Below, in pieces: positions 10,284 to 11,091 of a stretch of 12,537 nucleotides of DNA. The DNA comes from a virus: UHGV virus genome UHGV-0172325, one strand, 5' to 3'. Position 1 is the stretch's first letter; every line of letters begins with the position of its first letter. The notes under the pieces are model-generated. The model was not told the DNA's origin, made no database searches, and saw only the letters and a list, made by a program, of their open reading frames with translations. Made by a program: the position numbers and the translations under genes.

Positions 10284-11091
10284 GTTAGCTGATTACAGGC
10301 CTCAACTGGAGGTCGTGGAGCATCGCGTGGCAGATACCGAAGATGGTTTCATGCGCGTTGCTAACGAGATTACCGACAGTCTGCTGATGGCTGATTTAAC
10401 CGTCCGGCAGTTGAAGGTGATGCTCGCTATCATGCGCAAGACATACGGATTCAATAAGCCGATGGATCGACTCACAAACACGCAGATAGCAGCCATGACA
10501 GGTATTCATCACACTCATGTTTGCGCTGCCAAGCGCCAGCTTATTGAGCGTAAATTCCTCATTGCTGATGGCGTGAAAATCGGAGTGAACAAGGTGGTTT
10601 CTCAGTGGATTAGCCAGGACAGCTTAACATTAGCTAAAACAGCTAATAAAACATTAGCCAAGTCGGCTAATGGGTATAAGCCAAGTCAGCTAAACACAAA
10701 AGACAATATACAAAAGACAATAAATACAAATACCCCCTTACCCCCTAACGGGGATGGCGATGGGCAGGTTAAACCTGAACGTCGCAAGGCAGAACGAATC
10801 GACTACGAATCCTTCCTGAACGCCTACAACACCGAAGTCGGTGACAGACTTCCACACGCTGTTGCGGTCAACGAGAAACGAAAACGCCGCCTGAAGAAAA
10901 TTATCCCGCAACTGAAAACGCCAAACGTGGACGGTTTCAGAGCGTATGTCAGGGCGTTTGTGCATCAGGCCAAGCCGTTTTACTTCGGAGACAACGACAC
11001 GGGCTGGACGGCAGATTTTGATTACCTGCTGAGGGAAGACTCGTTAACGGGAGTTCGGGAAGGGAAGTTTGCAGACAGGGGGATTGCATGA
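10270..11091 (+). CDS. O: Replication initiator, lambda O-like
   Basis: The N-terminal segment [27 protein letters not shown] matches lambda O (LTKRQFKVLLAILRKTYGWNKPMDRIT) as recalled. Contains internal iteron-like repeats. The stop overlaps the helicase ATG (ATGA). Confidence 0.8.
10605..10740. other. ori-lambda-like origin inside the O gene: four imperfect ~16-bp iterons followed by an A-rich tract
   Basis: Direct repeats at about 10609, 10630, 10653 and 10676 (ATTAGCCAGGACAGCT / ATTAGCTAAAACAGCT / ATTAGCCAAGTCGGCT / AAGCCAAGTCAGCT), then the A-rich tract ACACAAAAGACAATATACAAAAGACAATAAATACAAATAC. Confidence 0.5.

Follow-up and report, generated by a model that had tools for sequence, protein, structure and literature searches.

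A probable lambda-type replication origin within the O-like initiator gene of a lambdoid prophage with an HK97/P22-type replication module

Four 18 bp direct repeats and an adjoining A-rich tract, located inside an O-like initiator gene, most likely constitute the origin of vegetative replication in a lambdoid prophage whose replication module is of the HK97/P22 type, in which an O-like initiator is paired with a phage DnaB-like helicase; we put the probability of this interpretation at about 0.9. All coordinates refer to the window, by which we mean the whole 12,537-nucleotide stretch of DNA that was analysed. The segment appears to have each of the features of a lambda-type, O-embedded origin that can be examined in a sequence. 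It belongs to an already known, textbook kind, is ordinary and expected in such phages, and is conceptually nothing new, and public phage records have included this very sequence since about 2000. That O genes can harbour origins whose specificity resides in the N domain and the iterons has been known since the comparisons of lambda, phi80, 434, and P22.

The 12.5 kb window corresponds to the early region of a lambdoid prophage, most probably in an E. coli chromosome. Genes in its left part are on the minus strand and code for N, a Rad52/Erf-type recombinase, SSB, an Ead/Ea22 protein, and a dATP/dGTP pyrophosphohydrolase. To the right lie a cI-type repressor gene (8666–9367, minus strand), cro (9436–9651), cII (9793–10089), and a 53-codon ORF (10122–10283) whose last 14 nt are also the first 14 of the O-like gene. 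The 53-codon ORF has no Pfam match, and is the counterpart of Nil2 ORF53, HK97 gp53, and P22 orf48, a gene that is missing in lambda (PMC3349717).

The O-like gene (10270–11091, plus strand) encodes a 273-residue replication initiator and contains the putative origin. The initiator matches Pfam family Phage_rep_O (PF04492) over residues 19–113 with E = 5.8e-33 and a score of 113.7 bits (cut-off 28.7). The Nil2 o gene, the product of which is annotated as 'origin binding protein', is 99.9% identical, its counterparts in Stx phages 1717 and 2851 are equally close, and identity to HK97 gp54 is 98.7%. The N-terminal DNA-binding domain with its putative recognition helix is, from the Pfam coordinates, encoded at 10324–10608; the presumed helicase-recruiting C-terminal domain is encoded at 10747–11088 (both plus strand); the part of the C domain common to other phages starts at about codon 149–160. 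The next gene (11088–12464, plus strand) codes for a 458-residue phage DnaB-like replicative helicase, the likely partner of the initiator, with Pfam matches to DnaB_C (E = 1.2e-78) and to the DnaB N-terminal domain (E = 4.4e-13). It is identical to the P22 gene 12 fragment at 351 of 394 residues and to HK97 gp55 at 387 of 391.

The repeats begin at codon 114, immediately after the Phage_rep_O match. A sequence-only reading of this region had proposed four imperfect direct repeats at roughly 21–23 bp spacing, and the repeat search that it suggested as a check returned a single family of four 18-nt copies, at 10609–10626, 10629–10646, 10653–10670, and 10676–10693, which are 78–100% identical to the reference copy. 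The repeats, their coordinates, and the consensus are thus as proposed and the peptide quoted for the segment agrees with the translation, but the start-to-start spacing is slightly different, at 20, 24, and 23 bp. When both strands of the 12.5 kb were searched with the consensus ATTAGCCAAGTCAGCTAA allowing up to three mismatches, exactly these four sites were found, against an expectation of 0.01, and none of 200 shuffled sequences reached four matches. A degenerate pattern recovered the same four sites together with minus-strand matches on copies 2 and 3, which are palindromes.

All four copies are on the plus strand and they differ in the quality of their arms. Iteron 1 (ATTAGCCAGGACAGCTTA; 10609–10626, codon phase 0) has a degenerate right arm, iteron 2 (ATTAGCTAAAACAGCTAA(T); 10629–10646, codon phase 2) has palindromic arms of 7 bp, iteron 3 (ATTAGCCAAGTCGGCTAA(T); 10653–10670, codon phase 2) has palindromic arms of 8 bp, and both arms are degenerate in iteron 4 (ATAAGCCAAGTCAGCTAA; 10676–10693, codon phase 1). 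The degeneracy of iterons 1 and 4 counts against the interpretation as an origin. Copies 2 and 3 share the palindromic form ATTAGCC-N5-GGCTAAT, and their single strands are predicted to fold into hairpins of -4.6 kcal/mol (z = -4.2) and -7.6 kcal/mol (z = -7.1), respectively. The iteron region of lambda is reported to be intrinsically curved; in a crude scan for AA/TT helical periodicity (10–11.5 bp), prompted by the curvature check proposed in the sequence-only reading, the segment 10600–10739 ranks 466 of 1240 windows and is unremarkable, with no phasing that would point to curved DNA.

The A-rich tract, a presumed DNA unwinding element, occupies 10694–10730 on the plus strand and consists of 25 A, 4 T, 2 G, and 6 C. 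At 37 bp it is shorter than the approximately 45 bp originally proposed, although the tract itself is plainly present. It holds two units of a 14 bp tandem repeat (ACAAAAGACAATAT/A; 10696–10723), GC content drops to 0.28, and the tract is the sixth least stable 40 bp duplex window in the 12.5 kb (z = 2.9). The least stable 40 bp duplex segments of the window are at 7146–7275, 9374–9413, 2387–2426, and 8214–8253, all of them more AT-rich than the tract in the O-like gene; the segment at 9374–9413, between cI and cro, is the operator/promoter region.

The tract opens with a block, ACACAAAAGA, that is present in all 13 of the O genes compared, and mosaic junctions with other N domains are located at or around the A-rich tract; for example, the match to an Stx2a phage starts at query position 445, which is window position 10714. 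The block also codes for a conserved NTK(D/E) peptide, so some of its conservation may stem from the protein or from a role as a recombination joint. To the right of the tract, at 10731–10753 on the plus strand, there is a C-rich 8 bp tandem repeat (TACCCCCT x2) with a weak CCCC/GGGG inverted repeat, at the place where lambda has an imperfect palindrome. The C-rich repeat may simply reflect the peptide PLPPNG. A C-rich tandem repeat and a short CCCCC/GGGGG inverted repeat follow the A-rich tract in eight of the 13 O genes, which have different classes of C domain, and this GC-rich inverted repeat was considered as a counterpart of the lambda palindrome. It was rejected, as the stem in the window is only 4 bp and its fold is no better than those of shuffled sequences (z = 0.22); since a PxxPxG peptide is encoded at the same place, we do not count the inverted repeat as a DNA element.

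The origin of lambda comprises iterons and an AT-rich tract in the middle of O, and O assembles on the four iterons to form the O-some (PMC7466680). In the RefSeq record of lambda the features 'ori iteron 1–4' are annotated at 39034, 39054, 39078, and 39101. The arrays of lambda, of P22 gene 18, and of the window are all built of 18 bp units with 20/24/23 bp spacing in codon phases 0/2/2/1, and the three have in common an ACA spacer before copies 2 and 3 and ACACAAAAGACA after copy 4. The resemblance to ori-lambda extends to the location at the centre of the initiator gene, flanked by the parts encoding the N and C domains, to the internal dyad symmetry of the four 18 bp iterons (clear in copies 2 and 3 of the window), to an A-rich tract on the same strand that opens with ACACAAAAGACA and has its first 12 bases in common with that of lambda, and to an initiator of the Phage_rep_O family. 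The arms of the repeats differ, however, being TTAGCC/GGCTAA in the window and TCCCTC/GAGGGA in lambda; the N domains are only 37% identical and have different helix motifs, and the C domains are unrelated (6% identity), the partner being a phage DnaB-like helicase in the window and P in lambda. Right of the A-rich tract the window has the C-rich repeat in place of the imperfect palindrome of lambda. The ori-lambda arrangement originally suggested for this segment is supported by the O-family initiator, the adjacent DnaB-like helicase gene, and the superposition of the four repeats on the lambda iterons, and further by the DNA-level constraint and the co-variation with the N domain across phages described below.

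P22 is closer in its module but not in its iterons. Its gene 18 holds four repeats of about 20 bp that are considered the P22 origin, with gp12 classed as a helicase of the DnaB type (PMC8022706). The orf48-18-12 module of P22 functionally substitutes for lambda O-P, and a host dnaB allele that blocks lambda at low multiplicity has no effect on a hybrid phage with the P22 module (PMC3349717). The window has the same order of orf48/53, O-like gene, and DnaB-like helicase gene as P22, the same iteron geometry, an A-rich tract and C-rich block that are nearly identical (95.6% over 68 bp), a C domain that is 57% identical, and the closely related helicase noted above. The iterons, in contrast, are TTTACC..GGTAAA in P22 and TTAGCC..GGCTAA in the window, and the N domains are 40% identical. 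Because both the iteron sequence and the N domain differ from those of P22, the predicted origin specificity is a different one, namely that of HK97/Nil2.

HK97 (gp54/gp55) and Nil2 (o/p) contain essentially the same element as the window, with O genes that are 98.7–99.9% identical and four identical iterons. There is no origin feature in the GenBank records of Nil2, HK97, or P22 (AF217253 and M10074). Our literature searches found no experiment on the iteron class of the window and no open-access paper that lists its iterons, the iteron strings giving chance hits in unrelated papers only. The iteron origins of theta plasmids (pSC101, F, R6K, and P1) are similar in having direct initiator-binding repeats beside an AT-rich unwinding element and an initiator encoded in cis. 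They differ, in a comparison by architecture only, in that the plasmid iterons lie outside the rep gene and the Rep proteins are of a different family; the plasmids also typically have DnaA boxes and control their copy number by handcuffing.

A fixed-geometry scan identified the same layout in 12 of 13 O-like genes, from phages of Escherichia, Salmonella, Klebsiella, Providencia, Yersinia, and Erwinia, with Cronobacter phage phiES15 as the odd one. Across the 13 annotated phages and 78 IMG/VR loci the iteron class follows the relatedness of the N domain and its helix motif and not the C domain. Five pairs of helix segment and iteron were recognized: TGIHHTHVC with TTAGCC..GCTAA (the window), TGMAPTKCS with TTTACC (P22 and BTP1), TGILPHKCS with TTACCC, KHHTHCS with TTAGC..TGCTAA, and TKLPVKRCN with TCCCTC (lambda). 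Every one of the 78 IMG/VR loci with the IHHTH segment has the iteron class of the window in the same geometry and phase. The segment of the N domain at residues 76–88 of the window initiator, which varies in step with the iteron arms over the five classes, is a candidate recognition helix.

Some genes combine the two halves of the initiator differently. BTP1 has an N domain 100% identical to that of P22 together with P22 iterons, yet its C domain is 96% identical to that of the window, and in Turner and SEN34 non-lambda N domains and iterons are combined with C domains of the lambda type (98% and 80%, respectively). In Stx2a phages such as EH1965 (LC616032; our locus L013) a wholly different N-terminal part is fused to the C domain and helicase of the window type; the joint corresponds to about position 10714 of the window, inside the A-rich tract, and a different type of iteron is found at this same mosaic joint. 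EH1965 has its own repeats of about 12 bp at 855–1000 of L013 (CCGCACATGA-like, encoding AHEAAQTTAHDAAHD...). The window-type C domain occurs with a window-type DnaB-like helicase in six cases out of six, and does so whatever the N domain, as in HK97, P22, BTP1, Providencia phage PSTCR7lys, and EH1965; the lambda-type C domain sits with lambda P downstream.

These pairings raise the possibility, which we consider tentative and on balance doubtful, that the layout of the O family (18 bp units, 20/24/23 bp spacing, fixed phase, and the ACACAAAAGA joint), with its swappable arms and co-varying helix, amounts to a readable recognition code of which at least five pairs are available. If so, the origin specificity and the incompatibility of co-resident lambdoid and Stx prophages would be predictable from sequence, and the Stx phages described as 'non-lambdoid Eru2' would use a true homologue of ori-lambda along with its regulation, for instance transcriptional activation, or detection of the palindromic hairpins of the origin by OLD or other defence systems.

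As the repeats lie within a coding region, it could be supposed that selection acts on the protein, for a repetitive and low-complexity peptide linker, and that the DNA repeats simply follow from it and have no role of their own, and the encoded segment does look repetitive and lies between two conserved domains. The four copies, however, are read in three frames and so specify three unrelated peptides, YKPSQLN among them. Moreover, when the window was aligned by codon position with five genes of its own iteron class, the N domains of which are 50–59% identical to that of the window, identity at first, second, and third positions was 0.68/0.82/0.38 in the N domain but 0.79/0.84/0.78 in the iterons, such that the decay at third positions and hence the codon periodicity is absent from the repeats. 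A constraint on the peptide also leaves the palindromic units of copies 2 and 3 unexplained, and the identical geometry is kept in P22 and lambda although their repeats, and hence their peptides, are different. A purely protein-level origin of the repeats is largely refuted by the reading frames and the codon-position comparison, and we regard it as extremely improbable. The three frames, the palindromic inner copies, and the conservation of third positions instead point to selection on the iterons as DNA. In an information profile of 148 iterons from 37 distinct IMG/VR arrays, the arms (TTAGC and GC.AA) reach values of up to 2.0 bits and the centre falls to 0.3–0.7 bits, the pattern that would be expected of a site for a dimeric DNA-binding protein.

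The further suggestion that the repeats are located in an interdomain linker is supported indirectly, by their position between two conserved domains and by the tolerance of extra iterons. Phage phiES15 has five iterons of the TTAGCC class, with a 36-nt insertion and a spacing of 20/24/36/24 (locus L005, 902–1023), locus L094 of IMG/VR appears to carry more than four copies of the TTAGC..TGCTAA class, and lambda-type Stx phages have six iterons (PMC7466680); the phiES15 and L094 arrays indicate that the number of iterons is not fixed at four in this family. An AlphaFold2 model of the initiator, computed from the single sequence without an alignment, has a mean pLDDT of 38.6 and is too poor to show disorder, and no relative was found in the PDB at E ≤ 1.

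Palindromic sites for helix-turn-helix proteins are typical operators, and the repeats might accordingly be operator-like sites for autoregulation or a roadblock to transcription of the O gene, with replication starting elsewhere. Iteron 3 together with a T-run on the minus strand also scores as a terminator-like hairpin (10672–10652), but this hit is accounted for by the palindrome and the A4 spacer next to it and was rejected as an artefact. An operator function does not explain why the layout matches the experimentally defined lambda origin base for base, unwinding tract included, and no second iteron site is present anywhere else in the 12.5 kb window, the cI–cro promoter region included; we therefore view it as very unlikely.

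A different concern is that the origin has the right ancestry but has lost its function in a cryptic prophage. The window is most probably prophage DNA, and a 171 bp segment spanning the origin, which is found in 442 of 5,426 complete E. coli genomes (~8%), is chromosomal at 456 of its 459 places. The O and helicase ORFs are nevertheless intact, and the exact initiator protein is present on at least 1000 contigs. The 171 bp segment is 100% identical in Nil2, 2851, and 1717, which are recorded as isolated Stx phages, and 98.8% identical in HK97, a laboratory phage whose four iterons are the same as those of the window. Decay is thus very unlikely, and we favour a vegetative origin in an HK97/P22-type module.

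By homology with lambda, we infer initiator binding, unwinding, helicase loading, and a dependence on rightward transcription for this origin. Dimers of the initiator N-terminal domain would bind the four partly palindromic 18 bp iterons, whose half-sites TTAGC and GCTAA are 7 bp apart and which are themselves spaced at about two helical turns. The resulting nucleoprotein 'O-some' would stress the adjoining A-rich tract at 10694–10730 and promote its melting. The C domain of the initiator would then recruit the DnaB-type helicase that the phage itself encodes in the next gene, whereas in lambda the host DnaB is hijacked via the P protein, a contrast supported by the insensitivity of the P22-module hybrid to the dnaB allele (PMC3349717); host primase and polymerase would presumably take over from there.

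With this identification, a very common prophage replication module gains the origin annotation that it lacked. Among its carriers are Stx2c and Stx2a phages of O157:H7, in which toxin production is driven by phage replication (PMC7466680). Llarena et al. (2021) gave the name Eru2 to a replication unit of Stx2c and Stx2a phages that they regarded as 'non-lambdoid', without O and P, and not described earlier (PMC8044961); iterons are mentioned nowhere in that paper. Eru2A and Eru2B match the window's initiator and helicase in length (273 and 458 residues) and in their Pfam hits, and Eru2 appears to be the same module as HK97 gp54/gp55 and Nil2 o/p, as judged by gene lengths and domains. The unit labelled non-lambdoid would accordingly carry a true homologue of ori-lambda in exact register. 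This bears on classification, and on the transfer of knowledge from lambda, including plasmid models, transcriptional activation, and inhibition by ectopic copies of the origin.

Two other parts of the window are worth noting. A 33 bp block (ACTGGATCAATCCACAGGAGTAATTATGACAAA) at 10098–10130 is the conserved 5′ sequence of pO/oop of lambdoid phages quoted in PMC3349717. About 50 nt downstream of it, on the minus strand at 10038–10065, there is a terminator-like hairpin with a 12 bp stem and a T-run, which lies within the terminal part of cII, in agreement with an OOP antisense RNA; a scan of the window with Rfam models (OOP RNA and others) at the gathering threshold gave no match. In the early-left region, the minus-strand gene at 1449–2399 codes for a 316-residue protein that combines a dATP/dGTP pyrophosphohydrolase domain (PF04447) with DUF551, and is located near the Ead/Ea22-like gene and those for the Rad52/Erf-type recombinase and SSB.
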